This document shows positions 24,057 through 62,880 of a DNA stretch of 64,000 bases, piece by piece. Made by a program: the position numbers and the translations under genes. The stretch is from assembly GCA_051294905.1 (NCBI GenBank), contig CM119373.1, forward strand, positions 29,388,001 to 29,452,000, written 5' to 3'. Each line of letters opens with the position of its first letter. The first letter of the stretch is position 1. Below the pieces are notes generated by a model. The model saw nothing but the letters and a program-made list of their open reading frames with translations, was not told where the DNA came from and did not search any database. The DNA comes from Botryllus schlosseri. Taxonomy: Eukaryota.

Positions 24057-24905
24057 AATGAAAGATGTAGTCGAATTGAGTCGTACATTCAAGTAACGAC
24101 TATTTTCTCACAATGTCAGTAAGAATGAATTAAAAAGTTAAAGAAATAATTTTGCCAGTTACGCGCCTTGCAAAAGTATTTCGTATTCCTGCAGCATGAC
24201 TTTTTCGTCACGACTTGTGAGCATTGCGTGCGTAGAGGACTATTTGATGGAAATGTCGTCTCATGAATATTCGTAGTCTTGTGCGACATGATTCACGACA
24301 CGTAGATACGGATAATGAAGGTTTCGAAGCTCCAACAGAGAAAATTAATAAAACTATAACTTACTAATAAACTATATTTCTGATTTACTCGTTTCGAGAA
24401 ATGTTCCTGTTTAATTTTTATCCGTATATTCTTACCCATTTTTCACCACATAATATTATCTAGTTTTTTAGTAGTATTATCTATTGGCAGCGATTGCTTT
24501 CATGACTTTTTCTAGTGTGTCTCTACTGGCAATTTACAGTATGCACGCAAAGAGACAGTAATTGCAGTGTACGTGTATTGATATTATCTTCTACCTTTCA
24601 AATATTCATTTTTATTTTCCATGTTCGTCTTGCTTTCTGCTATAGTATATGAGACCACAAATAAAACGTTCCCAACTCGATGTGGTCAATGTTTGGTACT
24701 TGTGAAATAAGTGCCCGGAGGTCTAGGCGGCATTAGTTATTTCATCATAAAGTGGGTGTGTTGTAGGATAGTAAGTGTTTTACATGTACCTTGAAATAAG
24801 GGTAAAAAAAGCACTAGGTCTGGTTAGGAACAAGTGAACAAAATAATCCCGCCATAAGAATAACACGGGATTAAAATATGAGAGAGTCAGTATACATGAA
24901 ACGCC

Positions 24906-24919
24906 AAGAAAAAGGGGGG
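24906..24919 (+). promoter_or_regulatory. Polypurine tract (candidate plus-strand primer)
   Basis: AAGAAAAAGGGGGG, closely resembling the lentiviral PPT AAAAGAAAAGGGGGG. Confidence 0.55.
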
Positions 24920-25006
24920 TTTGATCCGCTAAAGACGATGCGGAGTTGATCGACGCCACATGTCGTATTATTTACTTGCGCAGATACGCGGAAAAGAACA
25001 TACAAT

Positions 25007-25933
25007 GTGTTGAGTTTGGTCGAATCGGGTGCACTACTAAACACACGAGATTGTGTACTATTTCTGAGAAATCACGGGTTGTTGGTGCGAAGGATGAAAT
25101 GCAAGAGATGTAGAAAAATAATGAAAGAGGAAAATACGTCGACAGGCGACGATGGGTTTAGGTGGCGATGCAACCCCTGCGACACTACGGCGACTATACG
25201 AAAACACTCGATATTCGCAGGAAGCAAGGTAGAACTTCCCAAATTATTAATATTATTCTACTTTTGGGCCCATGACGCGTTGCAAACCCAAATTGCACAT
25301 GAAGCTGAAATTAGTCAGCGTTCAACGGTCACCTGGTGCGGCCGATTGCGAAAGCTTTGTACGGCCGAATTTCACAGGAATAAGCGACATCTGGGAAATG
25401 AAGGCGGCTGTGTGGTCATTGATGAAACGCACTTAGCTAAGCGCCGGGCTGCCTCAGACAAAGGACCAGCCGTTAAAGCCATTTGGGGGTTCGGTGGCAT
25501 AGATAAAGCTACCGGAGAAATGTTCATTGAGATTACTTCCGACAGGACTGCTGAAGTATTTCGAAAACTCATAGTAGAAAATGTGGCAGAGGGGTCCACA
25601 ATTTTAACCGATGCCTACCCTTCCTACAGGGGCATAGAGAGCTGGGGGAAGGGTTATATACACGGTGTAGTGGACCACTCCCAGTGGTTTAAGGACCCTC
25701 GGACATCTTTTTGTACTAATGAAATCGAGGGGGCCTGGGGCCAGCTTAAATATCATTTACATAGGTCTCGTGGGTTAGCACGTCACCTTTTGGCCGATTA
25801 TGTAGGGGAGTTTTTGTGGAAACGTCAATATCAAAAGACTGACCGATTTTTGGCACTCCTGCGTACCATACACAATGACCCACGGTATAATTTTGACAAA
25901 TTTGATGGGTCTCCTGTATTACCACAATTGTGA
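25007..25933 (+). CDS. IS1595/ISXO2-like (Merlin-type) DDE transposase 1; no in-frame ATG at the homologous N-terminus
   Basis: Zn-ribbon CKRC...WRCNPC, VVIDETHL, ILTDAYPSY, H.(V/I)VDHS, TNEIEGAWGQLK, Y..EF.W; frame is open from 24950. Confidence 0.88.
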   Translation: MLSLVESGALLNTRDCVLFLRNHGLLVRRMKCKRCRKIMKEENTSTGDDGFRWRCNPCDTTATIRKHSIFAGSKVELPKLLILFYFWAHDALQTQIAHEAEISQRSTVTWCGRLRKLCTAEFHRNKRHLGNEGGCVVIDETHLAKRRAASDKGPAVKAIWGFGGIDKATGEMFIEITSDRTAEVFRKLIVENVAEGSTILTDAYPSYRGIESWGKGYIHGVVDHSQWFKDPRTSFCTNEIEGAWGQLKYHLHRSRGLARHLLADYVGEFLWKRQYQKTDRFLALLRTIHNDPRYNFDKFDGSPVLPQL

Positions 25934-26062
25934 ACCCCGCTATAAGATTCCAGGACGGAAATGACGACATCTGTTATTTTGTGTTTTTACAGACGGTAGT
26001 CTAGGGCTAGTGCGCACTTATATTTAATTTATGACGTGGGGAAAACCACCACTGCCCGTACC

Positions 26063-28579
26063 ATGGACCTCCTTCCTCATTTTCTGTCTATCCTTGTTGG
26101 TATCATTTGTACATCTGATTTGTTGCTGCATACGGCGGCGAAAGGCATGCACGGACTCGCAGATCCTGTAACAGGTAGAGCACGATCTTTCACTCAGGGG
26201 ATGCTGGGTGAACTACGAGGACCCCTGCCTGATGAATGGATCACTTTAAATGATACACAATGGGAGGACTATCACTTGATGAGCATCTTCAATAAAACGG
26301 CGGAGCGACATGTATATAGACGGCCTGAGTTGTTTTACAGTAAGTCATTTGGTTACGTAGTGGCTGAGCGATTTTCATTACAACAAATGGCGTTTCCACA
26401 TGGAAGATATTGGAAAAATGTACCAGAATTTGAACGCACCTGTCTCTGTCAGCGACGCCTGGGCCAAATCACGCCCAATATTTCCTATGATGTCCTTAAA
26501 CAAACGAACATGTTCATTCGTCCAATAGGGGATTATAGGATCAGTTGGTTCTGGAGTGGGGACCAATACATGTCGTTTCATGACCTTGGCAAGAATTACA
26601 CTATGTTTGCTCTGACCAAATTTAAACTGATTATGATGAGACTATTCGAAAATTATTCAGCTGTTGAAGCTTCATGCCGTCAAAAGCCAATGACAGACCG
26701 GGACAGAGCCAAAATGAATGAATTGAATAAGTATAATGCCAGTAGCAATAGTTTTACACAATGCTGGCATCTAGTACAAAAAAGAGCCTACCGGGGCGAC
26801 TATTGGCAACAATTGTACTCCTGGAGGGAAAAAGGGGTCATAATAGGAATCTGTACAAGGTGTGATTTTAGAGGAGTTATCTCTGCCCTGGAACCAAATA
26901 AGGCAGATATAATCATCCAAGAAATAGTAATGACTACAGTAAATAACTGGCAGTATGTGCGCAGTCCGTTGATACCATGCCGGGCCCAGGGGGGATGGAT
27001 TAATCAGGACTGGTTTGAGCACTTATGGCCCGGGGGTGCTGTAATAGCCCATTCGTGCAACTTCTGGCCAGAAATGAATACCACTCTATGGGGCGATCTA
27101 CCAACGACAAATTTCCCTCCAAGAGTTAAATGGATACAACCGTCTTTTTCAAATCTAGATTATGGTTATTATGCTAATCGTGGCAATCAGGGCATGAGGT
27201 GGAATAACCTTTTTGATGGTGTACCGACTAGGTTTAGGGCATCTACATCAACATGGGTGCCTTTTCCCAGGCCTATGTGGAAACACTTCCCCTCTCTTAC
27301 TGCATCGGATGAAGCATGTAAAAATAGAATATCACGAAACCAGGATTTGTGTCGCGACCCGGTGGGCGGAACCGTTTTGAAGGCAGCTTTTTGGGACCAT
27401 ATTCATTTTGATCCAGAGCAAAACCGACCACGCTTTCCAGGGGGTCCAATAGAAATTAAAGGTGAATTGGTACCAGAAAATACCGCAAAACGGGGTACGC
27501 GTAGAAGGCGTAAAAGATTCCTAACTGGACTTATATGCCTTGTATTTGGTGTAATATCCGCGATTGCCGTCGTTGCAACAGTTTCAGCCCAGTTACATGA
27601 AGAGACGGTAGATCTTAGCCGACAAATCAATAATAGAATGATACAGGCCACGCAGAGGTCCACTGCACTGGGGAAAAAGATTAACGAACTCTCTCTACTC
27701 CAAACGGCTCAGCAACAGAAACTGGATCAAACGATCGCCACTATGGAAATGAGGGCATCACTAACAAATAGACGACTTGTACTAATGGAAAAGTACATAG
27801 AAAGAAACCGACAAATGATAATACGACAAGCCACAGCATCTCTGACCTCTTTTCAAAACTATAAGGAAATGAGTGATGCTGAACTAGCCATCGACCGATT
27901 AGTTTTGGACGAATTGGCTAATTTGACTGGCAAGTTAATATTTGACTCCAGCAAGGTGTACCTCACGAAAATCCGACAAGGAACGTTACGGATAAAGGAA
28001 CATGCTCAGCAGTTAACCGCCTATAGGGACGATTACATCAATGAGACAAATGACATTGGTGTAGAACTACGTGCTAACCGAATAAGCCTAGATCAAGCCC
28101 AACAGAGCGTGGATTTAGGCTTACAAGTTTGGAGAGAAGATCTGAATAAGAGTGTGTACATGAATATTTCTGACTGGCGATATGAGAATATTACAGTGAA
28201 GCCTTTCGAATTTGTTGGAGGGGAAGAATTTATGAAGAACTTTGGCCAAACGGTAGAAGAAATGACACACGGTGCCGGAAGCTTGATAAAATCAATAGGA
28301 GATAGCACAGGAAACCTACTACAAGACGGACTTGGCGCGGTCGGTGGTATATTTAGTAAAGGATTGAGCGGCCTTTTTTCTGGGTTGGGGTCTGTGTTAA
28401 TGCCAGTGATATTGATATTGGGGGCTGGGATCATCTTGTTTTGTTGCTGTCGCTATGGCAGTCTCTGCTGTCCTAAGTTGAAGTCTAAGGTACAGCAGCG
28501 TAACACGAATACTCAGTTGACAATGTACATATCATCGGTACCGACCCCCGTTAGAACAGCCAAATCGACCAGAATGTAG
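26063..28579 (+). CDS. env: Envelope fusion glycoprotein (class I-like), 838 aa from ATG 26063
   Basis: Signal peptide; furin site RRRRKR (27500-27517) followed by hydrophobic FLTGLICLVFGVISAIAVVATVS; heptad-repeat region; Gly-rich membrane-proximal region; TM helix; Cys-rich tail; many NxS/T sites. Confidence 0.85.
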   Translation: MDLLPHFLSILVGIICTSDLLLHTAAKGMHGLADPVTGRARSFTQGMLGELRGPLPDEWITLNDTQWEDYHLMSIFNKTAERHVYRRPELFYSKSFGYVVAERFSLQQMAFPHGRYWKNVPEFERTCLCQRRLGQITPNISYDVLKQTNMFIRPIGDYRISWFWSGDQYMSFHDLGKNYTMFALTKFKLIMMRLFENYSAVEASCRQKPMTDRDRAKMNELNKYNASSNSFTQCWHLVQKRAYRGDYWQQLYSWREKGVIIGICTRCDFRGVISALEPNKADIIIQEIVMTTVNNWQYVRSPLIPCRAQGGWINQDWFEHLWPGGAVIAHSCNFWPEMNTTLWGDLPTTNFPPRVKWIQPSFSNLDYGYYANRGNQGMRWNNLFDGVPTRFRASTSTWVPFPRPMWKHFPSLTASDEACKNRISRNQDLCRDPVGGTVLKAAFWDHIHFDPEQNRPRFPGGPIEIKGELVPENTAKRGTRRRRKRFLTGLICLVFGVISAIAVVATVSAQLHEETVDLSRQINNRMIQATQRSTALGKKINELSLLQTAQQQKLDQTIATMEMRASLTNRRLVLMEKYIERNRQMIIRQATASLTSFQNYKEMSDAELAIDRLVLDELANLTGKLIFDSSKVYLTKIRQGTLRIKEHAQQLTAYRDDYINETNDIGVELRANRISLDQAQQSVDLGLQVWREDLNKSVYMNISDWRYENITVKPFEFVGGEEFMKNFGQTVEEMTHGAGSLIKSIGDSTGNLLQDGLGAVGGIFSKGLSGLFSGLGSVLMPVILILGAGIILFCCCRYGSLCCPKLKSKVQQRNTNTQLTMYISSVPTPVRTAKSTRM

Positions 28580-28666
28580 TGCACGCATATGTACTCAAAG
28601 GATTTTACTTTTATAAAATTTAATTTTTTCATAAGTCCACAGATATACTAACTAATTTATAATAAT

Positions 28667-31600
28667 ATGAATCGTTACTTAAAAATATGGATTGTGCTGG
28701 CAGTAGCCTTAACACTACACCGAGGATATCTGCAAACTCATGGCCAATTATTGCCCCTATCTGATATGAGTGTGGTTCCCAGGATAGCATTTAATCTTAC
28801 AGGATGGACGACGTTCCGGTATCAAGGTCTCAGATACATCCGCCTTAATCAACTATTCAAATTAAACGAGAGTTGGCCAATAGGTGAAACGGAAAATAAT
28901 TTTCCAATATACAAAGAGACGCCCGAATTTGGTCCAACACGAGCTAGCCAAGATCAATTGTACAAGTTATTTGCACCCTCGGGGTCTGACAAGAGGTATT
29001 GGAATAATGTTAGACAATACGAAAGAGAATGCGGGTGCAATCGGAAACTATCAAGAATATCTCCCGATATTACGTTGGCAGCCTTTACCAGAACCACAAC
29101 ATATCGTCGAAAGAATAACTTCGGTTCAGTACATACATGGAAGTATGTGGTAGGAAGAGGAGCACATGGCACTATGGCTGTGCCAGGTCCGATCCTTCGG
29201 ATGATTTCTCCTAATGCTACTCCACAAGTTTCTATACACCAGCTATTGACGGTGTACAAGTTATCAGTGATGAATATCTTGGCACAATATGCAACAGTGA
29301 CAGCAAGGTGCCAGCAGCGTTTGGGAGAAATCGCGGGATGGAGAGTCAATAAAGGCGACTTTAACGTATGCGTGCACGGAGAAGACAACCAGATGCAATG
29401 CATAGGATGCTCATTTTATACAGACGATCTGGCAGTAAATATACTGTCCAGAGACTTTGTGGTCATGGAAATAGATAATAGCATCAGAGGATTAGGGACG
29501 AGAATGCAAGAAACTTATTCCTACAGTCAATGGCCAGCGGGAGTCAGATTACCCAGATTACATCACGACATCGTGTGGTTGAAGGCTCGAAATGAAACAG
29601 GCCCCAGGGAGAGGCCAGCAAACTTTGATGGTCATACTTGGTTTAGATTGAGGATTTACGCTCTTCGCGAACATCTAAATAATGATACTCAACGGATAAT
29701 GGGGAAGAAAAATTTTCCGACTATGTTGCAAGGCAGCATAGAATGTGAACGCAAGAAAAATAAGAAGGTTTGTCGCAATTCAATAGGAAGTTTGAAGACG
29801 GCCTTGGCCTTTAAGGAAGTGTTATATGATCCATATACAAATCAATCTGTGTATGCAGATCATAGCCATGGTCGATTACAAATTGCATCCCCAAGAACTG
29901 TAGGTCAGGAATCTCCACTTGAAGCGTGGCCTAAGAATCTACCCAATTGTAAACAACCCGGTAGATTAGGCAACCTTATCCTGACTGCATCATTCAAAAG
30001 CAATGGGCAAAACACAAGGAATATTGACTATTACCTAGCTCGCCTGGGAATGTTTTACGTAGAAGTAACGAAAAGGCGTTTACGCCAGTTATCTTTGCCC
30101 ATATATAAAATGCGAAAAACCCTGGGGAGATTGGACAGGTCCATAACTGGTGAAGAGATGGAGTCTCTAAGTCAGACGCTACGGTCAGCGTTGACACCTC
30201 AGAAACTGAGTAGGATAAATGAGGAGTTACTGAGCTATATGTCAACGCGCAAGCTCATAGAGGCGCAGCTTTATGATATGCGGATATTCCGACCTAGCGT
30301 TGCCTACAAAGCTATAATATGTGCGGGAATATTGGTGTATACACCTTATGCCTATAAGGAGAATATCCAACCGAAAACAAACTCCGCAAGGCCATCAAGC
30401 ATTGCAAAAGCATTAACAACAAGGCCTAGTAGTAAGGAAGGGACCACTCGAAGTGTGACTCCTAGCAGCGAGTCTAGTACAGTGTATAATTTCACTTCCT
30501 TCGAAATGGATCCAGAACCAACAGTGAAAATGGTGGAAACCATGATAACTGCTGGGGCAAGTATAAAAAGAACGGATCAGTACGATATTAATCGTTATAA
30601 CTATGATAATATAGAAGGTTATGAGGGATTTAGCTATGACGAAAATGACAACTATACCAGTTTACAAGAACCTGAAAATTACTACTATGACTATTATGAC
30701 GTAGATGGTGAATATGATAGTTCACTAAGAAGGAAGCCCATATCCGTTAGCGACACTACGACATCCACAAATATCATTGAAACTACAAATGCGTTATCCA
30801 CGAGTGGTACTCCAACCGCAATTACAGGGAGTCAATACACAATTAAGTCAACAATGGTTACCGCAACTTCTACGCCACGCCCGTCTGCATACACTCCGAA
30901 AAGTACTGCGGCTACATTAACAACTACTACAATCACGCCATATACTAGAAGGTTTACATCAACCATTATTACTTCTGGGACGACTTCATCGACACCACTT
31001 CCAGCCATGTCGATGACTGAGTATTCCTCACGCGAAGATAACACTAGCCCAAGACCGACTGCATCTATTATTACATTCTTAACTACAGTAAAAACTGTGA
31101 GTGAACAAGAAAGACGCAGGACGAGGCCCACAACTATCCTCACAACTGTGGAGCCGTCTACGGCTATATCAACAGAGATGGACACTCAGAAAAGCATTGG
31201 TATTGCTACGACAGGAGTCACCTTTTCTGAAAGAGGGTTAACAACTCGTGTACCAATGGAGAGAAGTGTAAACGCAAAGTTACAATGGAATACCATGACC
31301 GATCAAATACCCACAAAAAATGGTGAAATGATAGGCTCCTTATCCGTGCCAATAAAGAAAACACCCCAGATTACGCAGACACCTGAGTCTTATATTCAAT
31401 TGAGTTACCACACAAATCAACTCATGGACACAAAACCTCAAAGAGTGCATTTCAAAATGCTGTTTGATACAACCCAAGTAGCAACGACAGTCGAAACGCA
31501 CCAATGTTTCGTCACCGGCCATTCCCGCTCTAATACAGAACCAGATAATTTAAACAAAGAACAAGATCTACAGGTAAGAACTAAATCAACAACAATGCTT

Positions 31601-32068
31601 TCATCAGGGGACTATCAGAGCCAACCCACATCAGTAAGTAAAAATGATGTAATCAGAGGTTGGAAGAGTACTTCCAACAGTGCACTTTCTTCAATAACAC
31701 CCTCTATCGAAGAAGAAGGAAAAACTACACTCAGTATACCGCATACCTTACCTACGGCCAAATATGACAGACTGGACCGAATTACATTTGACTTTTATGG
31801 ACGACTGCACAAACTACAAGAAATGGAACAAGAATATGCAGCAGGTAAAATTATTGTTGATATTAACAATAGAAAAGATTTAGAAGAATCACTTAACAAT
31901 TATGTCTTGATTTTTGCGGTTAGCGTAACAACAATGGTAGGATGTATGTATTTATGTTATGCGAAATGCGGGAGAGTTGCAGCTAAAACTTATCTTAGAG
32001 AAGTTATTCGGCGGAATAACCGAAAGATGTATATTAACGTAGTAACATTGCATGAAAAACTGAGGTAG
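28667..32068 (+). CDS. Second type I membrane glycoprotein: Env-SU-like N-terminal domain plus Ser/Thr mucin-like stalk
   Basis: Signal peptide; RYWNNVRQYERECGCNRKL matches Env RYWKNVPEFERTCLCQRRL; long T/S-rich region; TM YVLIFAVSVTTMVGCMYLCYA. Confidence 0.82.
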   Translation: MNRYLKIWIVLAVALTLHRGYLQTHGQLLPLSDMSVVPRIAFNLTGWTTFRYQGLRYIRLNQLFKLNESWPIGETENNFPIYKETPEFGPTRASQDQLYKLFAPSGSDKRYWNNVRQYERECGCNRKLSRISPDITLAAFTRTTTYRRKNNFGSVHTWKYVVGRGAHGTMAVPGPILRMISPNATPQVSIHQLLTVYKLSVMNILAQYATVTARCQQRLGEIAGWRVNKGDFNVCVHGEDNQMQCIGCSFYTDDLAVNILSRDFVVMEIDNSIRGLGTRMQETYSYSQWPAGVRLPRLHHDIVWLKARNETGPRERPANFDGHTWFRLRIYALREHLNNDTQRIMGKKNFPTMLQGSIECERKKNKKVCRNSIGSLKTALAFKEVLYDPYTNQSVYADHSHGRLQIASPRTVGQESPLEAWPKNLPNCKQPGRLGNLILTASFKSNGQNTRNIDYYLARLGMFYVEVTKRRLRQLSLPIYKMRKTLGRLDRSITGEEMESLSQTLRSALTPQKLSRINEELLSYMSTRKLIEAQLYDMRIFRPSVAYKAIICAGILVYTPYAYKENIQPKTNSARPSSIAKALTTRPSSKEGTTRSVTPSSESSTVYNFTSFEMDPEPTVKMVETMITAGASIKRTDQYDINRYNYDNIEGYEGFSYDENDNYTSLQEPENYYYDYYDVDGEYDSSLRRKPISVSDTTTSTNIIETTNALSTSGTPTAITGSQYTIKSTMVTATSTPRPSAYTPKSTAATLTTTTITPYTRRFTSTIITSGTTSSTPLPAMSMTEYSSREDNTSPRPTASIITFLTTVKTVSEQERRRTRPTTILTTVEPSTAISTEMDTQKSIGIATTGVTFSERGLTTRVPMERSVNAKLQWNTMTDQIPTKNGEMIGSLSVPIKKTPQITQTPESYIQLSYHTNQLMDTKPQRVHFKMLFDTTQVATTVETHQCFVTGHSRSNTEPDNLNKEQDLQVRTKSTTMLSSGDYQSQPTSVSKNDVIRGWKSTSNSALSSITPSIEEEGKTTLSIPHTLPTAKYDRLDRITFDFYGRLHKLQEMEQEYAAGKIIVDINNRKDLEESLNNYVLIFAVSVTTMVGCMYLCYAKCGRVAAKTYLREVIRRNNRKMYINVVTLHEKLR

Positions 32069-40252: not shown

Positions 40253-40768
40253 ATGACAAGTGCTGATGCCATGGAGGCCTCTGTTCTGGATGAACAAATC
40301 TGGACCGGAAGGTGGATTGTTGTATTAAAAAATATAGATGAATTTCTCAAATCATGCCAAACATCGCCTGAAGCGGATGAAAATAAGGAAAATGAACAAG
40401 AAATTGACGAGGCCACCTTGGAAAGCTATTTTGAAAGAAACCCTTCGATTTGGGGAGATAGTACCGATTCGGAATTAGATCTAACCGACTCGGATGGAAG
40501 TTTGAGTATCTCGTCACATACTGATTCTGGACATGATGATATAGAGTCCTATTTTTACTCAGATAATGAGTCCGGGTCTTATTCTGATTCCGAGTCTAGT
40601 GATTTGACAGACTCGGACGAAAGTTTGAATACTCTACCCGATACTGACTCTGGGGTTAATAGTAGCGATTCCGATCTATCCTCAGATCATGAACAGTTAC
40701 GATCTCTTGACGAGGCAACTCTCAGGCGCCTTGATAGAATGTTTTGGCGCCCCTGGATGAACGAGTAA
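40253..40768 (+). CDS. Acidic Asp/Glu/Ser-rich protein with a near-terminal WRPW motif
   Basis: 171 aa, repeated DLTDSD/DTDSG units, ends RMFWRPWMNE. Confidence 0.65.
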   Translation: MTSADAMEASVLDEQIWTGRWIVVLKNIDEFLKSCQTSPEADENKENEQEIDEATLESYFERNPSIWGDSTDSELDLTDSDGSLSISSHTDSGHDDIESYFYSDNESGSYSDSESSDLTDSDESLNTLPDTDSGVNSSDSDLSSDHEQLRSLDEATLRRLDRMFWRPWMNE

Positions 40769-41567
40769 AATCGGAAAATTATGCGACCAAATGTACAAAT
40801 CCATAGGGACCATAATTTGTGGTGTGTGTATATTGACGATTTTGCATTATTACCAAAGATGTCGCGTTCTCTTATTATTTTGCAATGTTATTATGAAACA
40901 AGTTATACTGCGTGTATCTGGTTGTTGAAAGAGTTGAGCACCAAAATAACAACGTTAGTATATTCGACAGCTTTATGAAGTATAAGATAGATCGTTGGCT
41001 TGCATAAGATAGGAGATTAGTCATAGAGGCCTCAGACTCAAATGTGCACGCGGGACATTTCCTAGTTTAGGCAACACTGCGCGCCGTAGCACCAATAATC
41101 TGAGTATTTGATATGTGGGTTCTAGCTTGGTAGTACTTGATAGTTATTTACAGGCAGGCGCTCAACAAACAACGTTAAGTTGTAATTCACTATTACATTA
41201 TTCACGTTTAATTAAGATCATAACATTTTCGAAAAATTAGAATAAAAAAAAAAAAAAATTTTTTTTTTGGACCAAAGCATATCTTCTTTTAGTTAAAAGG
41301 TTATAAATTGTGGTGCCTGTGACACATTAGTTCTATCCTCAGGACTCTAATTGATTCTAACATCTGGTCCCGCTCAGCTGGTGTCGTTATTTTATGATCA
41401 TCTAATTAGTCTTAGAATAAGTAAGTTGATGTTGTAGCACCAAATTAATTTATAATTTTTAAGTCACGAATGATGGTAACAATATTAGACAATATCTTTG
41501 ACTAAAAGGAAATATTATTCTCTTTAGGTGTAAAAATAACAAGGACATAAATAAAATAAATAAAAGA

Positions 41568-42086
41568 ATGTCTGCCTCAATAACTAAAGAACAATTGTGG
41601 GAGTTATCTATTGAAAATATCGAACTATGGTACGAAGAACTTCGGGGGGTGAAAAAGACAGAGAGATTACAACGATGGAATGATTTTTTCGAGGACATTA
41701 AGAATGGAACTAGACATTATGCGGAGGCTTTCTTCGAAGGAATGGGAGCGAGTAATGAAAAGGTTAAAGAATGGCCGTGGCGAAATGACTATCGTAGAAA
41801 GCACTTAAAAAATCGAAGGGTAGCAAACATAAAACCATATTCACAAAGGAAATCGGCCTCAAACAAACAGAATAGAAATGAAGACATAGCGGCTAGCTCC
41901 TCAACATCGACAAGTAGTCCTCTTTTGACACCCATACTGACGTCGTCTTCAACAAGCCACGACTTGCCGCATACTGGCAATGTTATGACAGATGAGACGT
42001 ATGCATCTTTTGGCAGTATCATGTTTCGTCAACAACTGCCTATCGCTAGGTTTCAGCCTACAACATCACGTCATGCTGATGTTTAA
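41568..42086 (+). CDS. Hypothetical viral accessory protein (172 aa)
   Basis: ATG-started ORF on the element strand, preceded by a TCTTTAG acceptor-like site; no recognisable domain. Confidence 0.55.
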   Translation: MSASITKEQLWELSIENIELWYEELRGVKKTERLQRWNDFFEDIKNGTRHYAEAFFEGMGASNEKVKEWPWRNDYRRKHLKNRRVANIKPYSQRKSASNKQNRNEDIAASSSTSTSSPLLTPILTSSSTSHDLPHTGNVMTDETYASFGSIMFRQQLPIARFQPTTSRHADV

Positions 42087-42269
42087 TTCATTTCTCGCAT
42101 GTTATTTGACTAACATGATTGGTAGGGTTGTATTAATGAAGTTGAGCTAATGTATTTTATCTGCCTCGCATTGATGTACAATATGAACCAATATACTAAT
42201 GTTGCGTGAATAAAAAGGAAAACATTTTGTATTCTAGAAATATAAATAGTGAACTAATTAAAGAAGACA

Positions 42270-45270: not shown

Positions 45271-46311
45271 ATGAACCGAGTGGAACTACTAGTATTATGG
45301 CTGGGCATGTGTTATGCTATTTATCCGGAAACAATAGAACAAAAGAAATGTACAATTAATGAAAGACGAACCATGTTATACCCGGAATGCATGCAAGGAA
45401 GCAATTTGGTACTTTGGTGTGACCATTCGAGTTATACAAGGATTCCGGATCCTGACAAAATATACCTGGCAAAATCTTGTCGGAACACAGTAAAGATATT
45501 CATCAACGACAGCTGCCTACGGGAAATAACCAAAGGACAATTGGAAAAGTATAAAGAAGTAGAGGTGTTGCATTGTGGTTGGAATAAAATCCAAACAATA
45601 CCAGGAGGAGTCTTCTGCAAAAATGAAAAGCTCAAGGAGGTAAACTTGATGCGCAACTACATCACACGAATTGAAAAAGAAAGCTTTTCAGGCTTATACC
45701 AACTGGAAAGTCTGTACTTAAGCAGTAATTTGTTGGCAGAGGTGGAAGGATCGATATTTGCCAGTCTGGAGAATCTGCAAAAGCTATATCTGGACAATAA
45801 TGAGATAAAAAGATTGAGGAATGGAACATTTGTTCACTTGCGCCGTCTCAGGATACTGGATTTATCAAGAAATGCAATAAACGCTATAGAAAAAGGGGCG
45901 TTCCAAGGACTGAGGAAACTGGAAACGTTACACTTGGATGAAAATAGACTGGTTGAGTTTGATATGACAGTACTCGAATCTTTATGTAATTTAGAGAGAT
46001 TAACGTTGTACTATAATGAATTACAATATTTTTCCCTGTCCTCCAATATCTCGTTCAAATATCTACATACTATTGATCTTAGTTATAATCACGTTCAATT
46101 TCTTAGTGATTCTCTATTGAAAAAATTACCAGACTTGGAGGTGTTAAAATTAAATAGACATAATAATGGAACGCCTACCAAAAGACCCCATGTGCGTAAA
46201 CAATCGAGATTATATTATAATGAGATGAAAAATTTATCCCATTGTGTGACTATACTTTCGAAAGGTATATTTACCGTTATTGTATGGCTAGTCACTATTG
46301 AACTGATGTAA
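45271..46311 (+). CDS. Secreted or membrane-anchored leucine-rich repeat protein
   Basis: Signal peptide, Cys-containing N-cap, about 9 extracellular-type LxxLxLxxNxI/L repeats, hydrophobic C-terminus. Confidence 0.88.
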   Translation: MNRVELLVLWLGMCYAIYPETIEQKKCTINERRTMLYPECMQGSNLVLWCDHSSYTRIPDPDKIYLAKSCRNTVKIFINDSCLREITKGQLEKYKEVEVLHCGWNKIQTIPGGVFCKNEKLKEVNLMRNYITRIEKESFSGLYQLESLYLSSNLLAEVEGSIFASLENLQKLYLDNNEIKRLRNGTFVHLRRLRILDLSRNAINAIEKGAFQGLRKLETLHLDENRLVEFDMTVLESLCNLERLTLYYNELQYFSLSSNISFKYLHTIDLSYNHVQFLSDSLLKKLPDLEVLKLNRHNNGTPTKRPHVRKQSRLYYNEMKNLSHCVTILSKGIFTVIVWLVTIELM

Positions 46312-46375
46312 ATCTAAAGAAAATATAGAATCTTGAGGTATTGATTCAGTATCGTCCTGTTCAACTAATAATAAG

Positions 46376-46930
46376 ATGTTTAATATATTAGAATACGGTA
46401 AAAATATTACTAAAAGTATCAAAATGTGTTTGGGATTGCGTTGTGATGATCCGGAGATACAACATTTGACCTGGATACCCCAAAAGGAAACACTAATAGA
46501 CAACGGATTAAAGTCGCTGAAGTTTCTGTTGACAACATATTCACTGACGGATCACTTATGTGATATAATGTACGACGAATTAAATCCACGACTACTATAT
46601 TGGAAACAAAAGTATGGTGTCACAACATGCAACAATCATTGGCTGGGGAAACATCTGGTTGAAAATGAGTGGGAAGAAATTTATACAGGAAGCATTTACC
46701 CTGAAAAACCTATACAAATGGCTTTTGCAGAAATTTGCATAAACTGGGTAACAATTTTAAAAAGAGTAAATCCTGAAATAAGGGAATTTCTAAAAAAGGG
46801 AGATTCTGAAAGAGATCTCATAATGTGGATAATCTTTCCGGAAGTTCAAATTTATGCATTGGCAAAGACGCAGGAAATATCATTAAAGGAAGCCGATTGT
46901 AGATTTATGACTTTGAAAGTACCTGCATGA
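46376..46930 (+). CDS. Hypothetical viral accessory protein (184 aa)
   Basis: ATG-started ORF tightly packed between the LRR and DDE2 genes. Confidence 0.6.
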   Translation: MFNILEYGKNITKSIKMCLGLRCDDPEIQHLTWIPQKETLIDNGLKSLKFLLTTYSLTDHLCDIMYDELNPRLLYWKQKYGVTTCNNHWLGKHLVENEWEEIYTGSIYPEKPIQMAFAEICINWVTILKRVNPEIREFLKKGDSERDLIMWIIFPEVQIYALAKTQEISLKEADCRFMTLKVPA

Positions 46931-46998
46931 AACTTAACTTTCCGATGTTTATGTATACAGAAACTACTTTTGAAAAGACAATTAAGTTTTAAATAAAT

Positions 46999-47946
46999 AT
47001 GAAGACTAAAGAACCCAGAAAAAGAAGAAATCTATTCAATCTTGCTCGATGTGGTATAATATCAAGTGAACGAAAATGTATAAAGTTTTTGCGATCACGG
47101 AAACTTCTTGTTCAAAAGGAAACATGTTTTAAATGTGGACAACAAATGAATGAAGAAAAATGCAAAAGAACTATGGATGGATATAGATGGAGGTGTCTGG
47201 GTTCAAAGTGCCGGACTACCACGTCCATAAGGAAAAGATCGCTATTTGAAGGAAGCAAAATAAGACTCACCCAACTTGTAATGATGATTTATCTTTGGAC
47301 CATAGATGTATCTCAACGACAAATAGCTTTTGAAGCACACGTTAGCAAGAGAACAATGGTGAATTGGACCAAGAAACTTCGTAAGATATGCTCTGGGGAG
47401 ATGGAAAGAAGAGATACTCTAATAGGGGGAATATCACAAGGTAAATCACATGTAATTCAAATTGATGAGACGTTTGTGGCCAAAAGAAAATTTAATCGTG
47501 GAAGAATAATACGCCAACGCTGGGTTTTGGCTGGAATAGATATGAAAACGCGAGAAATGTTTGCAGAATTGGTACCTGAAGAAGGGAGAAGAACCTCTGT
47601 ATTATCAGAAATAATTATGAAACACGTAAAAGAGGGATCCACTATATGGACTGATTCATTTGCCAGTTACCGCAAGTTGGAAAGCCTGGGAATGAATTAT
47701 AAACATTCAATAGTTAATCATGATCGCGAATTTGTCACCCCAGAAGGCATAAATACACAATTGATCGAGGTGTCTTGGAATTTTTTCAAAGCTGCTATTA
47801 GAAGACTGAATGGGGTATCAAGATCACATATTCCCCATTACTTACAGGAGTGGCTCTGGAAGAGAAGAGTGGCCTTGGAAGAAAGATTTCAACGATTTCT
47901 GGATATAATTGTCCTTGATCCCAACTTTCGGACATTAGAACATTGA
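46999..47946 (+). CDS. IS1595/ISXO2-like (Merlin-type) DDE transposase 2
   Basis: CFKC...WRCLGSKC, IQIDETFV, KRKFNRGR, IWTDSFASY, HSIVNH, TQLIEVSWNFFK, YLQEWLW; no flanking TIRs. Confidence 0.9.
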   Translation: MKTKEPRKRRNLFNLARCGIISSERKCIKFLRSRKLLVQKETCFKCGQQMNEEKCKRTMDGYRWRCLGSKCRTTTSIRKRSLFEGSKIRLTQLVMMIYLWTIDVSQRQIAFEAHVSKRTMVNWTKKLRKICSGEMERRDTLIGGISQGKSHVIQIDETFVAKRKFNRGRIIRQRWVLAGIDMKTREMFAELVPEEGRRTSVLSEIIMKHVKEGSTIWTDSFASYRKLESLGMNYKHSIVNHDREFVTPEGINTQLIEVSWNFFKAAIRRLNGVSRSHIPHYLQEWLWKRRVALEERFQRFLDIIVLDPNFRTLEH

Positions 47947-48245: not shown

Positions 48246-48896
48246 ATGTATCTATCTGAAGTACAGGAGTATAATACTGCTATTTTTTGTAAATTGATGA
48301 GTCAATTAGATAAAGTGGATGTACAAAAAAATACTGGCTGTCTAAAATTGCTGATGGAGATGGTAAAAAATTTTTTTGAACAAGAACATAATTGGTACAA
48401 GAGACAACTTCCATGCGGTAACGAAATATCCAATGGTTGGATGTCGGAGGACGAAACGTCTAGTAATACGGACTCTGACGACTCCCAAGATTCTGCCATT
48501 GTGAAAGATTCATCACGACGACGACGACTTATAGTATGGAATAAACAGACAATACGACCCGATGAAAATACATGGACTATAATTACGGAAACCTTGATGG
48601 GAGTTGTCCGAAGAATACCTCCCCTATGTATGAGGCGAGTAATATATGAAGTAATACGAGGAGTAGTAATGGGCTATACAAGGTTGTTGATATGTTCAAA
48701 TAGCCTTGCTTATGTTACAGACGCAAATTGCAAGTGGATTTGGCACAGCCAAACCAATTTAGGAGTAAAAGGATATATGTTGTTGGATTCTGACACATCT
48801 GTTATGGATGCATATATATATATATACTCGAAGAAAGTAGATAAGAAAGCCCAGTCAATGAATCAATATCTGGAAAATTCCTATATTTTCGATTAA
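48246..48896 (+). CDS. Hypothetical protein, orphan family B member 2
   Basis: MRRVIYEVIRGVVM...WHSQTNLGVKGY matches the 44606 ORF. Confidence 0.7.
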   Translation: MYLSEVQEYNTAIFCKLMSQLDKVDVQKNTGCLKLLMEMVKNFFEQEHNWYKRQLPCGNEISNGWMSEDETSSNTDSDDSQDSAIVKDSSRRRRLIVWNKQTIRPDENTWTIITETLMGVVRRIPPLCMRRVIYEVIRGVVMGYTRLLICSNSLAYVTDANCKWIWHSQTNLGVKGYMLLDSDTSVMDAYIYIYSKKVDKKAQSMNQYLENSYIFD

Positions 48897-58681: not shown

Positions 58682-61600
58682 AGACAAATTGATATTTCAA
58701 CACATAAAAACTTTACATAACTCTTCTTTACCTTTATTTACATTTCTTGATATGCCGGATGACCCTCTACAGCCCGATTTTACGGAATTGTTTGGTAGCC
58801 AATTGTTGTATTTGGTTGATACAGCAACTGGTACAAAATTCCTAGCTGACACGGGGAGCATCCCCAATTTAATAATGAAAAACGTAATTATAACTAAATA
58901 CCCACAAAGCTGGGAGGAACGTCAACCAATAGATATGGAATTGACTGGAATAGGCGGCTCGTCCCAAGTGGACTCCTTTGTAGTGATTGATTTTGATGGG
59001 CTGTCTGTTCCATTTGTGACCGGATCAGGAGTCCCACTTAATATCATAGGGCTGAAATGGATTGAGGAAGTCCAACAATTACCAGGCATCACTGCTGAAT
59101 TCAAAACCCCGTCTAACGCAAATGTGGAGTTGTCTTTAGTATCACTACTTGAAGAGAATCTTTGTGATCAGAGTAACGGAACCAAAGTCGGAAGCAGTAT
59201 TAGCTACACTGTAACCGACGATGGGTTGATGGATGCTGCAAATCAAAGTAGCGTGAAGCGGAAAATTGCCGCTGGCGCGAGTACCGAGATGGAAATGACC
59301 ACCGGTGCGAGTGACGAGTTGAAGTTAGCAACTAGCGTCACACATAACCCATGGGAATCTATAGGTGTTGAGACAGGAATTCCTGCTGACACCGTAAATG
59401 AAGACGTCGAGCGTGGAATCCCCGCTGGCGTAAAGTTGGACCTGCACGAGAAAACTGGTCCTAAATGCTTGCGTGGATGCACTTGTCCGAATAACCTTAA
59501 TGATTCGGCCCATAGCTGCATGACGACAGCCACAGTAATGAGTACTTTCCCAGAAGGTTCAAATGAAGCAGCAATTGCCGGTCAACCGGATACACATCCG
59601 GAGATGTCCGACAAGGAGTCTGGGGATTTTAGGATGCACGTCTCCCCAGAAAAAGGGTCCCCGGCGGAAAATGAGTCCGTCGGCGTGGCGGTAGGTGCGG
59701 GCACGCGCCGAGACCAGAGGCCTACATCGAAGGACCTCGCTCTCTCTCCACCAACACCAACAATCCGGTCATCACGAATCTCAAACCAGCCTATGGCTGG
59801 ACCAGTCACTACGTATGTTTTACAGAAAGACACTCACCCACGAGTCAAGACGGAGCTCGAAAATCTTTGCGCACAATCGGTAGCGTTGGCCAAACTCCCA
59901 TACAAACCTCCTGATCTGACGTCTCCAGAAAATACCATTATCTCTGATGATGTCTGGAAAGCCATCTACGCACCATTTGCGTCCGAGCTCGAGGACCTGC
60001 GGAGCCACCTTGGCGGCCCGCAAACCATGAAGTACAAATGCGACATCGAGCTTAAAGATCCTTCGACGAAACCATTTGTGTCTGGGCCTTATAATCTGAA
60101 GGGGGAGGGCCAGGCGAAAGCATTGAAAGAAGCAGTAGACAACTTCCTGGACTTGGGCGTTATCGAAAGAGGTTTTGCCGAATGGAAGTTGGCTATCTTT
60201 GTGGTCCCCCAGAAAATGAATGAGAGACAAAAACAGGAGGACGGATGGAAGCAAGCATGGAGAGTAGTACAGAATCTCCAACCCCTTAATGCGGCCATAA
60301 AATCGATAGAAGTACCTCCACCTCTTGTACCGGACGTAAAGCAGCTCGCCCAAGGCAGAGAAGTGCTTTCTCTCCTTGATTTGAAGAAGGCCTATTTCCA
60401 CATGGATGTAACGGAAAGATCTAAACAATATATGGGTATAGCCATCAAAGGGATGCATGTAAGATGGCGTAAAATGCCGATGGGGCTTAAAACCGCTGTG
60501 GCTCTTTGGAGCGCGAATATGCAGGAATGCGTGGTGAAACCTATCACGGAAAAATACCAACAACACATGAAACAGGTTGGCAGAGCAGACGAGGAAAATG
60601 CGACGCCTATGGAGGCCTACATAGACGATATTTTCCTCAGCACAAAAACTGTAGAAGACCACTTATTGCTGCTACGCATGGTATTTGAACAGCTTGCCAA
60701 AATGAAACTAACAGTTAGCATCAATAAATGTTTCATTGGAAAACGGAGGGTGAACCTTTTGGGGGCAACCTTGACGGGGAAGGAAATTGAGGTTCAGCCC
60801 GAAAGAATAAGGGCTTTACGCGAACTCTCACCACCCCATAATGTGTACGAGTTAAGGGGGTGGATTGGCGCGCTTCGCTATATCTCGGAGCATATACCTG
60901 AGTTAAGTTTGAAGCTGGCTAAATTCGATGCGCTAACAGGCAAGGTCCCTGCGACACAAGGACGAATGACGCCTGTGTTATGGACCGATGAATTACTGCA
61001 GGATTTCAAAATGGCACAAGCAGCCCTTGATGATACTAAGGTCTTGTACCATCTAGATCCAAATCTTCCCATTTTTGTGGAAACAGACGCCTCAGATGTT
61101 GGGTTTGGGTCAATCATTTTCCAGACGGAAAAAGGATGTAAACCGCCTTTCGAAAAGGTCTACCCAATTGCTTATTACAGCCAGAAATGGGTAACTCCAG
61201 CGGCAAAAGCCTATGATCCGTGCACAAAGGAATTGAAAGCCTTAAAGGATTCGGTCGAAAAATGGCAGTCAATGTTGAGAGCCTTACCCTTTACAATAAT
61301 TACTGACAATACTGGGGTATTTGGACTTCTCAAAAGAATGACGGACAAGGCAAAACACCCAAGCCCAAAACCCCTTATTCAGAGGTGGCTCAATCATCTC
61401 GCAGGATTCCAAATAAACGAGGTAATTCATTTAAGCACGATGCAAGTATTCACGTCAGATGGATTGTCTCGATCATATTGGATGGAAATGGCAGCGGGAG
61501 AAGAAGATCCACATGTTTGGGCGACGATTCCCAAGAAAAAAAGCGTTCAAGACCAGCAGAAAATGCCTCGACCGGAGAAAATACAGCACAAATTGATGGC

Positions 61601-62072
61601 CCATTGTCGACATGAGCCTTGTGACAAATCGGTGGATGGGTACCATCCCTGGGAAGATATTTGTGAAATCATTAAAATAAAGACCGGGGTGGAAATGAAA
61701 ATGGAAGAATTAAAAGACGTCATGAAAAGGTGCGACAGGGCAATTGTCTCAGAAAATGGATTGGCGGCTGCCCACGGGCATACACAAGGGAAGCCTCCTC
61801 AATATTGTAAATATGAAGGTAACGAGGTATTGTACCACATGACGACTGAAAACAATGCAAGACAGATAATGTCTAAAGGCATTGAACGAATGAAAAGGAG
61901 ATTCATTCATTTGAGCAAAACGATAACGAAGAAAAGCAAAAAACGTAATGTGGTAATTTGCATGAAAGCAGCAGAGATAAGAAATGAAGGGCTATTACTG
62001 CTGCAATCAAACGTGAAAAATGTGGTATTGTGTGAAGGCCCTATACCACCAACAGTCATACAAAAATTGTAA
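58653..62072 (+). CDS. pol: Pol polyprotein: aspartic protease, reverse transcriptase, RNase H and a Tpt1/KptA-like domain; no integrase
   Basis: FLADTGS (58848), LDLKKAYFH, MPMGLK, YIDD (60618-60629), TDASD (61083), ELKAL, TDN, DGLSR; then CRH...GHT...LYHMT...GIERMKRRFIHLS...IPP. Expressed by frameshift; the start shown is the ORF-track GTG. Confidence 0.93.
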   Translation: MLIDPVNQLPDKLIFQHIKTLHNSSLPLFTFLDMPDDPLQPDFTELFGSQLLYLVDTATGTKFLADTGSIPNLIMKNVIITKYPQSWEERQPIDMELTGIGGSSQVDSFVVIDFDGLSVPFVTGSGVPLNIIGLKWIEEVQQLPGITAEFKTPSNANVELSLVSLLEENLCDQSNGTKVGSSISYTVTDDGLMDAANQSSVKRKIAAGASTEMEMTTGASDELKLATSVTHNPWESIGVETGIPADTVNEDVERGIPAGVKLDLHEKTGPKCLRGCTCPNNLNDSAHSCMTTATVMSTFPEGSNEAAIAGQPDTHPEMSDKESGDFRMHVSPEKGSPAENESVGVAVGAGTRRDQRPTSKDLALSPPTPTIRSSRISNQPMAGPVTTYVLQKDTHPRVKTELENLCAQSVALAKLPYKPPDLTSPENTIISDDVWKAIYAPFASELEDLRSHLGGPQTMKYKCDIELKDPSTKPFVSGPYNLKGEGQAKALKEAVDNFLDLGVIERGFAEWKLAIFVVPQKMNERQKQEDGWKQAWRVVQNLQPLNAAIKSIEVPPPLVPDVKQLAQGREVLSLLDLKKAYFHMDVTERSKQYMGIAIKGMHVRWRKMPMGLKTAVALWSANMQECVVKPITEKYQQHMKQVGRADEENATPMEAYIDDIFLSTKTVEDHLLLLRMVFEQLAKMKLTVSINKCFIGKRRVNLLGATLTGKEIEVQPERIRALRELSPPHNVYELRGWIGALRYISEHIPELSLKLAKFDALTGKVPATQGRMTPVLWTDELLQDFKMAQAALDDTKVLYHLDPNLPIFVETDASDVGFGSIIFQTEKGCKPPFEKVYPIAYYSQKWVTPAAKAYDPCTKELKALKDSVEKWQSMLRALPFTIITDNTGVFGLLKRMTDKAKHPSPKPLIQRWLNHLAGFQINEVIHLSTMQVFTSDGLSRSYWMEMAAGEEDPHVWATIPKKKSVQDQQKMPRPEKIQHKLMAHCRHEPCDKSVDGYHPWEDICEIIKIKTGVEMKMEELKDVMKRCDRAIVSENGLAAAHGHTQGKPPQYCKYEGNEVLYHMTTENNARQIMSKGIERMKRRFIHLSKTITKKSKKRNVVICMKAAEIRNEGLLLLQSNVKNVVLCEGPIPPTVIQKL
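61575..62069 (+). other. RNA 2'-phosphotransferase (Tpt1/KptA, PTS_2-RNA)-like domain at the Pol C-terminus
   Basis: Tpt1 motifs in the expected order and spacing: RH (61608-61613), DGY, DRA, AHGHT, LYHMT (61830-61844), MKRRFIHLS (61890-61916), S-N...VVL...IPP. Confidence 0.8.
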
Positions 62073-62880
62073 ATACATATTGGCAGAGTGTAACTAAGTA
62101 TTATAAGACGGGTAAACGGACAAAAAAAAACCTATAATGGGAGTAAACGGAAAAAACCGAAACCTCGTAACTAGAAAAAATGCTGAGTCAGCACATTTTA
62201 AGCTCGTGTGGAAAAACGAGAGAAAAAGAAAAAAAAAGAAATAGGGGTTTAAGTGATAAAAGAAGGTAATTGAATTAAATGATCATGGGGAATCATGATG
62301 AATGACGTCAAGTATACACACGAGTAAAGCGGGCATATACTGCATTAGTTCCCAATGTTTTGTTGTTCGACCAATCTAGTCCCCAGTAAATTCCATGATA
62401 GTGTTCAGCGTTCGTGACCACATTTTCTTGAAGCGAATGCACACTTGTACCTGAAAGCATGAGGAATATGGATCGTCATTCATAAACATATGTCAATTAT
62501 GTGGTAGATGAAGGCGCCAATGGCTGCGACTATGTATGGGAGGTGACAGGGTGACTTCTAGGGGAGAAAATTCAGATACCTTTGACCTTAGTCGTAATTT
62601 TGTAGTAAAACTATGTTTAAAATTCATTCAATCCGAGCACCCATCCAACCATACGCCCCCAGTCTACAATACCGCAAACCATTTCAGCGCAATCGCTGCA
62701 AAGACGTAACTCGCTAAGTACATGATGTCTACAGATCACTATGTGATCATACTGAGAACCAGGACTACATGCCAGTACTGTATGGAGATATATACCAGCA
62801 AGGTGGTAGTGGATTATCTTCATGTGTACCACCTTCTTGTGCCTTCATGGAGTGGTACGCGAAAACAGTAAAGACCACAG

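Follow-up and report, generated by a model that had tools for sequence, protein, structure and literature searches.

How does a retrovirus-like genome that carries neither an integrase nor paired long terminal repeats (LTRs) become inserted in an animal genome? This question is raised by a locus in the 64,000-nucleotide stretch of Botryllus schlosseri DNA analyzed here (the window), where an earlier note, made from the letters alone, had placed a recently inserted, enveloped reverse-transcribing virus of about 37.6 kb at 24700..62350. Coordinates refer to the window, and the genes and priming sites named below lie on its plus strand.

Ends and copies of the element

Comparison of copies fixed the element at 24,695-62,352 (37,658 bp), so that the size proposed earlier stood but the exact ends did not. 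The left end starts with GG (24695..24716, plus strand) and forms an imperfect terminal inverted repeat with the CC-terminal right end (62331..62352, minus strand), which lies 280 bp past the pol stop codon. An 8-bp target-site duplication, CAATGTTT, flanks the element at 24687..24694 and 62353..62360. Inverted GG...CC ends with an 8-bp duplication are the signature of Merlin/IS1595 elements, Merlin being defined in passages of PMC8101967 by 5'-GG ends and an 8/9-bp duplication. The two ends match at 15/22 positions, as against a Merlin criterion of 24 to 462 bp for terminal inverted repeats; one Merlin family with highly imperfect ends is reported in the same passages (PMC8101967). A 9-bp repeat near both ends was rejected as the target duplication because other copies place it inside the element. 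Searching the whole window for LTRs revealed no long direct repeat.

The host genome holds dozens of intact copies, with order and spacing alike on many contigs, and a search for sister copies of pol yielded 62, which were scored and range from 52 to 100% identity. Perfect 8/9-bp target duplications (9 bp once) were present in 16 of the 18 copies with paired ends, a matching duplication being absent from the other 2, and 12 of the 18 measured 37.6 to 40.4 kb, in agreement with the proposal of a single, recently inserted mobile unit. Copy lengths span 8 to 56 kb; internally deleted copies (8 to 23 kb) keep perfect duplications, indicating that they were either mobilized as such or deleted in place. 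A joint representing the empty site, with a single target copy, was seen in 4/4 sequencing runs. Insertion involves the entire element as a single unit, with GG...CC ends and duplications of 8 bp (9 bp once), and the family is polymorphic and recently active in this host.

Transposase genes

Two open reading frames (ORFs) match the ISXO2-type DDE family of Pfam (DDE_Tnp_IS1595), both with an intact D-D-E triad and both of the Merlin/IS1595 type. DDE1 (24984..25933) is an exon that begins at a splice acceptor kept in 30/30 left ends; a possible ATG mini-exon was found in 14/17 left ends scored, and DDE1 therefore need not depend on the end junction. DDE2 (46999..47946) has its own ATG, is 38% identical to DDE1, and is missing from some subfamilies. 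A co-oriented DDE1-type (Merlin-type) gene accompanies pol in 58/62 copies, and the divergence of the two genes is correlated (rho 0.94). Among 17 close copies the Mantel correlation was lower (rho 0.68) and some pairs were discordant, which suggests recombination. DDE1 is under purifying selection, with a dN/dS of 0.08 to 0.18 against the window copy (11 copies).

Coding layout and accessory genes

The interval 24,695-62,352 contains 20 ORFs that start with ATG, share one orientation, and reach 100 aa or more; a further ORF of 89 aa precedes gag, and all of these frames are uninterrupted. They are arranged as transposase, env, env, and accessory genes, followed by a spliced-leader copy, the primer-binding site (PBS), gag, and pol, at a coding density of 62%. 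Besides the DDE genes, Pfam matched LRR_8, three BIR repeats plus RING, UQ_con, zf-CCHC, RVT_1, and RT_RNaseH. The gene content announced by the earlier note was thereby recovered: about 20 co-oriented ORFs with almost no disabling mutations, two DDE genes, two membrane glycoproteins, IAP, E2, and LRR genes, a PBS, a -1 frameshift, and a protease-reverse transcriptase (RT)-RNase H pol without integrase. The Merlin-type ends, the target duplication, the Tpt1 domain, the spliced-leader copy, the copy number, and the permuted order had escaped that note.

A stretch of 8.2 kb without long ORFs (32,069-40,252) is partly homologous to the permuted subfamily and contains a host-repeat-like insert near 36,798-37,328. 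It is followed by four accessory ORFs with no assigned family (40253, 41568, 42270, and 44606; 40253..45175), an LRR protein encoded without introns and bearing a hydrophobic segment at its C terminus (45271..46311), and an ORF kept in permuted copies at 35 to 60% identity (46376..46930). Beyond DDE2 lie a paralog of ORF 44606 (48246..48896; E 1e-6), an intronless IAP with three BIR repeats and a RING (49146..50840), and six small ORFs (50967..54214), namely, a four-member paralog family (50967, 51452, 53129, and 53765), the separate ORF 52028, and the E2 ubiquitin-conjugating enzyme (52537-52992). The IAP, E2, and LRR genes were captured from a host, and their products probably promote the survival of infected cells. 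Rfam gave 0 matches over 24,600-62,500, and 0/13 proteins matched PHROGs.

Env1 (26063..28579; 838 aa) has a signal peptide, a basic cleavage site at 480, a hydrophobic stretch at 484-512, long helices, 12 sequons, and a transmembrane segment at 767-803, features that suggest a class I fusion-like protein. In the atlas it scored 0.89 to 0.90, with low recognition, against clusters of spike, F, and haemagglutinin proteins; a fold search with a single-sequence model (pLDDT 57) gave no match at E 0.001 or better, and a homolog search gave one match, probably from the same family. Env2 (28667..32068; 1133 aa), whose N-terminal part is homologous to Env1 (E 1e-9), has a Ser/Thr-rich stalk and a transmembrane segment at 1078-1099 and may be attachment-protein-like. 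Gag (55810..58659) comprises a coiled coil, a capsid-like helical region, and a CCHC knuckle, the zf-CCHC match being weak (E 5e-4). On a pLDDT-63 model, 10 of the best 18 VIA rows were of the Gag capsid type, all with Z <8, and the atlas lead was 0.90; Foldseek returned no match for the capsid region. The presence of Env and Gag genes suggests that the element may form infectious particles and so be a virus.

Pol without integrase and with a Tpt1 domain

The pol frame (58614..62072) is in -1 relative to gag, with a slippery site, A AAA AAC, at 58,638-58,644 and then a hairpin of -18 kcal/mol. It encodes a protease (DTG), an RT (YIDD), and an RNase H; the DTG motif occurs in the window and 5 relatives, and Pfam RVP matched in relative P0003. 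No Pfam integrase was found in the window or in the 8 relatives scanned. Where an integrase would be, the C terminus of Pol instead carries a Tpt1/KptA RNA 2'-phosphotransferase domain (61578..62039), with a Pfam match above cutoff and PDB alignments that agree with the fold family. In the rows that have the domain, the Arg-His of the Arg-His-Arg-Arg tetrad is present in 6/7 and the other two Arg in 7/7; this tetrad marks the Tpt1/KptA family. Pol is under purifying selection (dN/dS of 0.09 to 0.14 against the window copy, 10 copies), the Tpt1 domain gave values of 0.17 to 0.43 (10 copies), and 55/62 pol matches, down to 52% identity, are free of internal stops.

The best single-sequence PDB match of Pol was cauliflower mosaic virus (PDB 8r0s), and in a profile search with RT-RNase H, Ty3 (188 bits) and Caulimoviridae tied at the top. 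In a quick-search tree of 75/171 candidate rows (the best 16 plus every second row, all unnamed and 5 under half filled), the RT-RNase H grouped with integrase-less proteins from other assemblies, apart from all integrase-bearing matches sampled, 58 Gypsy-type rows among them. One relative, L079, has gag-pol-env with neither transposase nor Tpt1 in its 13.9-kb contig. No relatives were found among the viral contigs scanned.

Spliced-leader copy and priming sites

The tunicate spliced leader is reproduced without mismatch over 25 nt at 55235..55259 on the plus strand, 250 nt before the PBS. This copy matches the host spliced leader, its first base coincides with the start of host capped cDNAs, and two of the three permuted copies aligned retain it at 23/23 nt; we propose that it marks the 5' end of the genomic RNA. 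An ATTAAA after the leader copy is not conserved among copies, and folding of the leader-to-PBS region was not significant (z -1.77). The PBS (55,485-55,502) is complementary over its 18 nt to host tRNA-Ile(AAT) with CCA appended. In another subfamily it matches host tRNA-Thr, an Ile-to-Thr switch in which both versions match host tRNA genes; the PBS tracks host tRNAs. A candidate polypurine tract lies at 24906..24919, a purine-only run of at least 12 nt being present in 30/30 left ends. Between PBS and gag, the 89-aa ORF (55532..55801), with a hydrophobic N terminus, is kept in permuted copies.

Permuted copies and transcripts

Two circularly permuted gene orders exist: in 7/62 copies the order is gag-pol-transposase-env-end, a circular permutation of that in the window. 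Permuted copies carry the right end after env2. The left ends of these copies and their target duplications were not reached: in the C12 copy, about 20 kb ahead of gag were covered, and five further probes of 1.2 kb did not show the expected duplications.

Most RNA reads examined were host leader-bearing mRNAs or came from flanking repeats, and depth inside the element was 0 to 9x except near the leader. In a single-cell run, about 410 sense reads with about 80 starts fell at 55,070-55,190, just upstream of the leader, and almost none lay beyond 55,300; such reads may derive from mRNAs of accessory genes or from priming at A-rich sequence. Near the right end, a small group of sense reads (9x) follows pol directly and precedes an A-rich stretch. 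At this low RNA depth, no right-to-left end junction was present among the 15 read joints listed of 106. Passages of PMC5704250 report that an element of the IS1595 family forms a circular intermediate.

Proposed replication cycle and alternatives

We consider it probable that the element is a temperate, enveloped reverse-transcribing virus, with Gag, protease, RT, and RNase H of the Ortervirales type, in which a Merlin/IS1595 transposase and inverted ends replace integrase and LTRs. The transposase fills the gap left by the earlier note, namely, how integration occurs. In the proposed cycle, an integrated copy would give rise to a circle joining the right and left ends. Transcription of a terminally redundant RNA would begin at the spliced-leader site, proceed through gag-pol and over the joined ends into transposase, env, and accessory genes, and stop once the leader copy had been passed a second time but before the PBS. 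Gag would package this RNA, and Env1 and Env2 would envelop it. Reverse transcription would then be primed by tRNA and, for the plus strand, at the purine tract; the product, a circle resembling that of caulimoviruses and having only one U3-R-U5 region, would be cut by the transposase at the joined ends and inserted, yielding a permuted provirus. The weakest step of this scheme concerns the Tpt1 domain, whose probable role is to strip off 2'-phosphates or to cap the ends of nucleic acids within the particle.

The Merlin-like ends, duplications, and transposases would also suit a giant Merlin transposon that moves as DNA only and carries the integrase-less retroelement as captured cargo. Teratorn, a transposon-virus fusion described in PMC5601938, is a precedent for such an element, the internally deleted copies retain perfect duplications, and neither junction RNA nor a circle was seen among the read joints listed. 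Passive cargo should nevertheless decay, yet pol is under purifying selection and largely stop-free, and the PBS has changed to another real host tRNA. The leader copy, the purine tract, the intronless captured genes, and the circular permutation point to RNA-to-DNA cycles, and we regard movement as DNA only as rather unlikely. That separate elements are nested by chance, or that the locus is misassembled, hardly deserves credence: the non-coding middle of 8 kb does hold host-repeat-like inserts and copy lengths do vary from 8 to 56 kb, but the shared order and spacing on many contigs, the duplications matched across paired copies, and the empty-site joint in independent runs contradict this explanation and refute it in practice.

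The route to the circle could also differ. The RNA might run end to end along the linear insertion, the minus strand from the internal PBS reaching the 5' end and then passing to the 3' end through either a template jump or RNA ligation, with Tpt1 cleaning the junction, so that a circle would form without excision. This route accounts for Tpt1 in Pol, makes an excision step unnecessary, and is in line with the sense reads just after pol and the possible mini-exon in the left end. On the other hand, those reads precede an A-rich stretch, the ends have no terminal redundancy, a 31-kb strong-stop product would be required, and nothing in it explains why a perfect copy of the leader should stand 250 nt ahead of the PBS, where a 5' end would normally lie; we judge this route improbable.

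Relation to known elements

The element shares with Ortervirales homologous RT and RNase H, an aspartic protease in Pol, and a tRNA priming site, while the integrase in Pol and the paired LTRs with a 4- to 6-bp duplication of Metaviridae, Retroviridae, and Belpaoviridae are absent. Like Caulimoviridae, it has a protease-RT-RNase H Pol without integrase, a single internal PBS, and no paired LTRs; the circular DNA product and terminally redundant RNA of that family would be shared under the proposed cycle, to which the circular permutation lends indirect support. Caulimoviridae have a movement protein, no envelope, and genomes of about 8 kb, whereas the element has an animal host, two envelope glycoproteins, 37.7 kb, integration with target duplications, and Tpt1, and no movement protein was matched by Pfam. 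DIRS-type retrotransposons also have RT and RNase H without integrase and a circular DNA integrated by a nonretroviral enzyme, but this is a tyrosine recombinase, and they are not known to have protease, env, or tRNA priming, in contrast to the DDE transposase, protease, PBS, and env of the element. With env-bearing Metaviridae (Ty3/Gypsy) it has in common the RT-RNase H similarity to Ty3, gag -1 pol, a PBS, and env; it differs in lacking integrase and an LTR pair, in its 8-bp duplication with GG...CC, in having env upstream of gag, and in its RT clade, which is separate from the Gypsy-type rows in the tree of sampled candidates. The giant planarian Burro elements, also Metaviridae, share large size and an IAP; passages of PMC8532177 give no structure for them.

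Merlin/IS1595 (IS1016) elements share DDE_Tnp_IS1595, the D-D-E triad, 5'-GG ends, and the 8/9-bp duplication (passages of PMC8101967), but the element is about 38 kb, has a full retroviral gene set, and has up to two transposases; "reverse transcriptase" does not occur in the main text of PMC8101967. Teratorn, a piggyBac-alloherpesvirus fusion, likewise has a virus genome within DNA-transposon ends and its own DDE transposase but is a 180-kb DNA herpesvirus with piggyBac and no RNA or reverse-transcription step (PMC5601938). Kuafuorterviruses are, like the element, an invertebrate reverse-transcribing lineage, with LTRs, an integrase, a size of 5 to 6 kb, and IADD/VADD/LADD motifs (passages of PMC11673190); membership was rejected because the element has no LTRs, integrase, 5- to 6-kb size, or [ILV]ADD motif. 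The claim of the earlier note that the element fits none of the families it compared held as regards the missing integrase and LTR pair, the kuafuorterviruses, and the separate RT clade; the tree rows being unnamed, the RT may yet nest in a named family.

On balance, we lean toward a new family-level group of animal pararetroviruses of marine invertebrates, enveloped and integrase-less, whose genomes reach about 40 kb. Some of its members would behave like temperate phages, entering and leaving the chromosome by means of a Merlin transposase, and would have a genomic RNA that begins with the host spliced leader and Tpt1 in Pol. In the open-access literature searched, we found no description of this combination, in which an integrase-less retrovirus-like genome encodes the DNA-transposon enzyme that inserts it, the inserted form being most probably a DNA circle. 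LTR-based annotation misses such elements and would split them into "Merlin" and "Gypsy fragment" calls. The Tpt1/KptA family would gain a viral setting in which its role is testable. If the proposed cycle is true, class I and class II mobile elements would be joined in one life cycle, a retrovirus-type Pol copying and a DNA-transposon enzyme inserting; animals would gain an integrase-less, caulimovirus-like lineage; and a reverse-transcribed genome would reach about 40 kb with a DNA virus-like set of captured host genes. An unrelated DDE enzyme could then replace integrase, which would bear on the origin of retroviral integration.

Gene content of the element

Between 24.7 and 62.4 kb, the element (window 24,695 to 62,352, + strand) contains 20 ATG-initiated ORFs with a minimum length of 100 aa, all on the + strand and all uninterrupted, in agreement with the earlier note, which had described co-oriented genes almost free of disabling mutations. 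Pfam also recovered the genes named there: two ISXO2/IS1595 transposases, DDE1 and DDE2, both retaining D-D-E; an LRR protein, an IAP and an E2 enzyme; a gag with a weakly matching CCHC knuckle; and a reverse transcriptase (RT) with RNase H, no integrase being found by Pfam in the element. Overlooked at that stage was the C-terminus of Pol, a Tpt1/KptA RNA 2'-phosphotransferase domain (Pfam E 1.6e-11, above cut-off), an assignment borne out by comparison with solved structures. The same protease-RT-RNase H-Tpt1 order without integrase occurs in proteins of other assemblies at 36 to 47% identity; in one relative's Pol (P0011), an Exo_endo_phos domain follows Tpt1 at residues 882 to 955. The middle of Gag weakly resembles retroviral capsids (10 of the top 18 structure-comparison rows, all with Z < 8), and Env1, one of the two membrane glycoproteins, has its sequence features arranged like those of a class I fusion protein; a fold search with Env1 gave no match.

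Coding density is 62%, and an 8.2-kb stretch 3' of env2 lacks a long ORF. The non-coding middle contains a host-repeat-like insert with short inverted ends (window 36798 to 37328), similar sequence being present in host flank (locus L053). Accessory ORFs at window 42270 to 43130 and 46376 to 46930 gave weak, sub-cut-off matches to PWP3A-B_C. Outside the element, two single-ORF CD20/MS4A-like host genes (window 10661 to 11464 and 23145 to 24056; Pfam E 2e-9 and 3e-3), both surrounded by inverted repeats, probably form a small gene cluster, and a Harbinger/PIF-type DDE_Tnp_4 transposase ORF lies at window 4326 to 5183 on the - strand.

Ends, target duplications and copies

Merlin elements are defined by GG ends and 8- or 9-bp duplications, according to the part of PMC8101967 consulted. 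The window element has CAATGTTT at either flank, a GG motif opens 30/30 left ends, and a CC-terminal motif is shared by all 20 right ends fetched. Among 18 left-right pairs, 15 had perfect 8-bp target duplications, one a 9-bp duplication and two none; 12 of these copies measured 37.6 to 40.4 kb. A perfect duplication also borders an 8-kb deleted copy, whose empty site was seen in 4/4 sequencing runs, although the flank there is a host repeat. The subterminal motif was counted 172 times versus once for the control. Targets look like RAWWWTTY, and the short copy on contig C16 and the left flank of a C3 copy have an identical 8-bp flank sequence, by chance or target preference.

We scored 62 of 1,511 candidate pol matches in the host genome; they showed 52 to 100% identity, and 55 lacked an internal stop. 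A co-oriented DDE1-type gene accompanies 58 of the 62, Env1 and Env2 matches adjoin the pol/DDE1-type copies, and DDE1-type and pol identities to the window covary (rho 0.94, among copies of common ancestry, for which a p-value has no meaning). In divergent subfamilies (84% to 52% pol identity), a CC end follows soon after pol, as judged by eye from the ends alone. dN/dS relative to the window was 0.09 to 0.14 for pol, 0.08 to 0.18 for DDE1 and 0.17 to 0.43 for the Tpt1 domain. DDE1 and pol divergence were discordant in some close copies (0.9% against 8.9%), which suggests recombination. The family is real and recently active, and it is close to shown that the transposase inserted the whole unit. 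A chance nesting of separate elements is very improbable.

Signs of reverse transcription

The primer-binding site (PBS) and -1 frameshift proposed from the sequence both held up: window 55,485 to 55,502 complements host tRNA-Ile(AAT) plus CCA over 18 nt, and the slippery site was found again in two marine relatives. In two permuted copies, the aligned PBS position complements host tRNA-Thr(CGT). A tandem array on a host contig (G000:C12:26016839-26160051) holds at least 37 tRNA-Ile 3'-end matches at 2- to 3-kb spacing. The left-end purine tract is purine-only in 30/30 copies.

The tunicate spliced leader (sequence from Table 1 of PMC3795323, the portion consulted) is present as a perfect copy 250 nt upstream of the PBS, and its first base is the exact start of thousands of host cDNAs carrying a template-switch adaptor. 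In the position expected for a retroviral 5' end, such a DNA copy would be the trace of reverse transcription of leader-bearing RNA. One single-cell run showed a pile of about 410 sense reads with about 80 starts at 55,070 to 55,190, and beyond 55,300 coverage dropped almost to nothing. RNAs ending between leader and PBS would produce this pattern; the pile could alternatively stem from internal priming or from accessory mRNAs.

Circular permutation and mode of insertion

In the window copy, env lies 5' of the PBS and pol comes last in the element. Seven of the 62 copies are arranged differently: pol is followed, after 222 to 243 bp and without an intervening end, by a DDE1-type gene and env. 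Six of these seven (81 to 82% pol identity) terminate in the family right end, which lies about 480 bp 3' of env2 and has a different flank in each, and the seventh has a candidate right end. Sequences homologous to the non-coding middle and the accessory ORFs of the window element precede gag in the permuted copies; the permutation is read from the right side and internal order, the left ends lying beyond the regions searched. Both orders are a single circular map cut at two places, which requires a circle or head-to-tail dimer at some stage. A circular intermediate is on record for the IS1595-family element MTnSag1 (PMC5704250, in the portion consulted). A non-coding piece of the permuted copies (L071:1-1400 and L158:6180-6601) recurs at 82 to 94% identity at many other places without scored pol; these may be members of the family that are non-autonomous or escaped scoring. 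Directly beyond the right end of the C12 permuted copy lies a decayed Gypsy element that includes an integrase (L159:519-2490).

We consider it probable that the element is a caulimovirus-like virus with an envelope and that its reverse transcript, a circle, would be inserted by the virus's own Merlin transposase working on the joined ends, with genomic RNA transcribed from the circle; the circle, the junction-spanning RNA and the particles are what we infer. Two results count against this reading: no end-to-end junction was found among the 15 of 106 joints listed (depth 0 to 9x), and a possible ATG mini-exon in 14/17 left ends would allow DDE1 to be expressed from a linear copy. An RNA running from end to end and then closed, either by ligation or by a jump between templates, is the less likely of two further explanations and to us quite unlikely. 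The other, a giant Merlin moving only as DNA with viral genes as cargo, is also unlikely, and the leader copy upstream of the PBS speaks against it.

Placement and relatives

A profile of eight family proteins gave 188 bits for Ty3, 185 for cauliflower mosaic virus, 124 for foamy virus, 112 for MLV-type and about 30 for HIV. Among the 75 unnamed rows of a quick, midpoint-rooted ML tree, 17 integrase-less rows including the window formed a long-branch clade (SH-aLRT 99), apart from the remaining 58, which were mostly integrase-bearing and Gypsy-type.

No single element combining RT, env and a Merlin transposase was found in the openly accessible papers searched; the earlier suggestion of an undescribed lineage stands to that extent. 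Kuafuorterviruses, in the portion of their description consulted, differ in every defining feature. Teratorn, likewise from partial text, is the nearest idea but is a DNA herpesvirus.

A 13.9-kb marine contig, L079, has the order PBS-gag-pol-env, and its Env is homologous (E 4e-8); integrase, Tpt1, an LTR pair and transposase are all absent from the contig. Its primer site, which we take to match an initiator-Met-like tRNA, is directly preceded by a perfect 27-bp stem (L079:1713-1816). As this relative lacks a transposase, the lineage is wider than its transposase-bearing branch.
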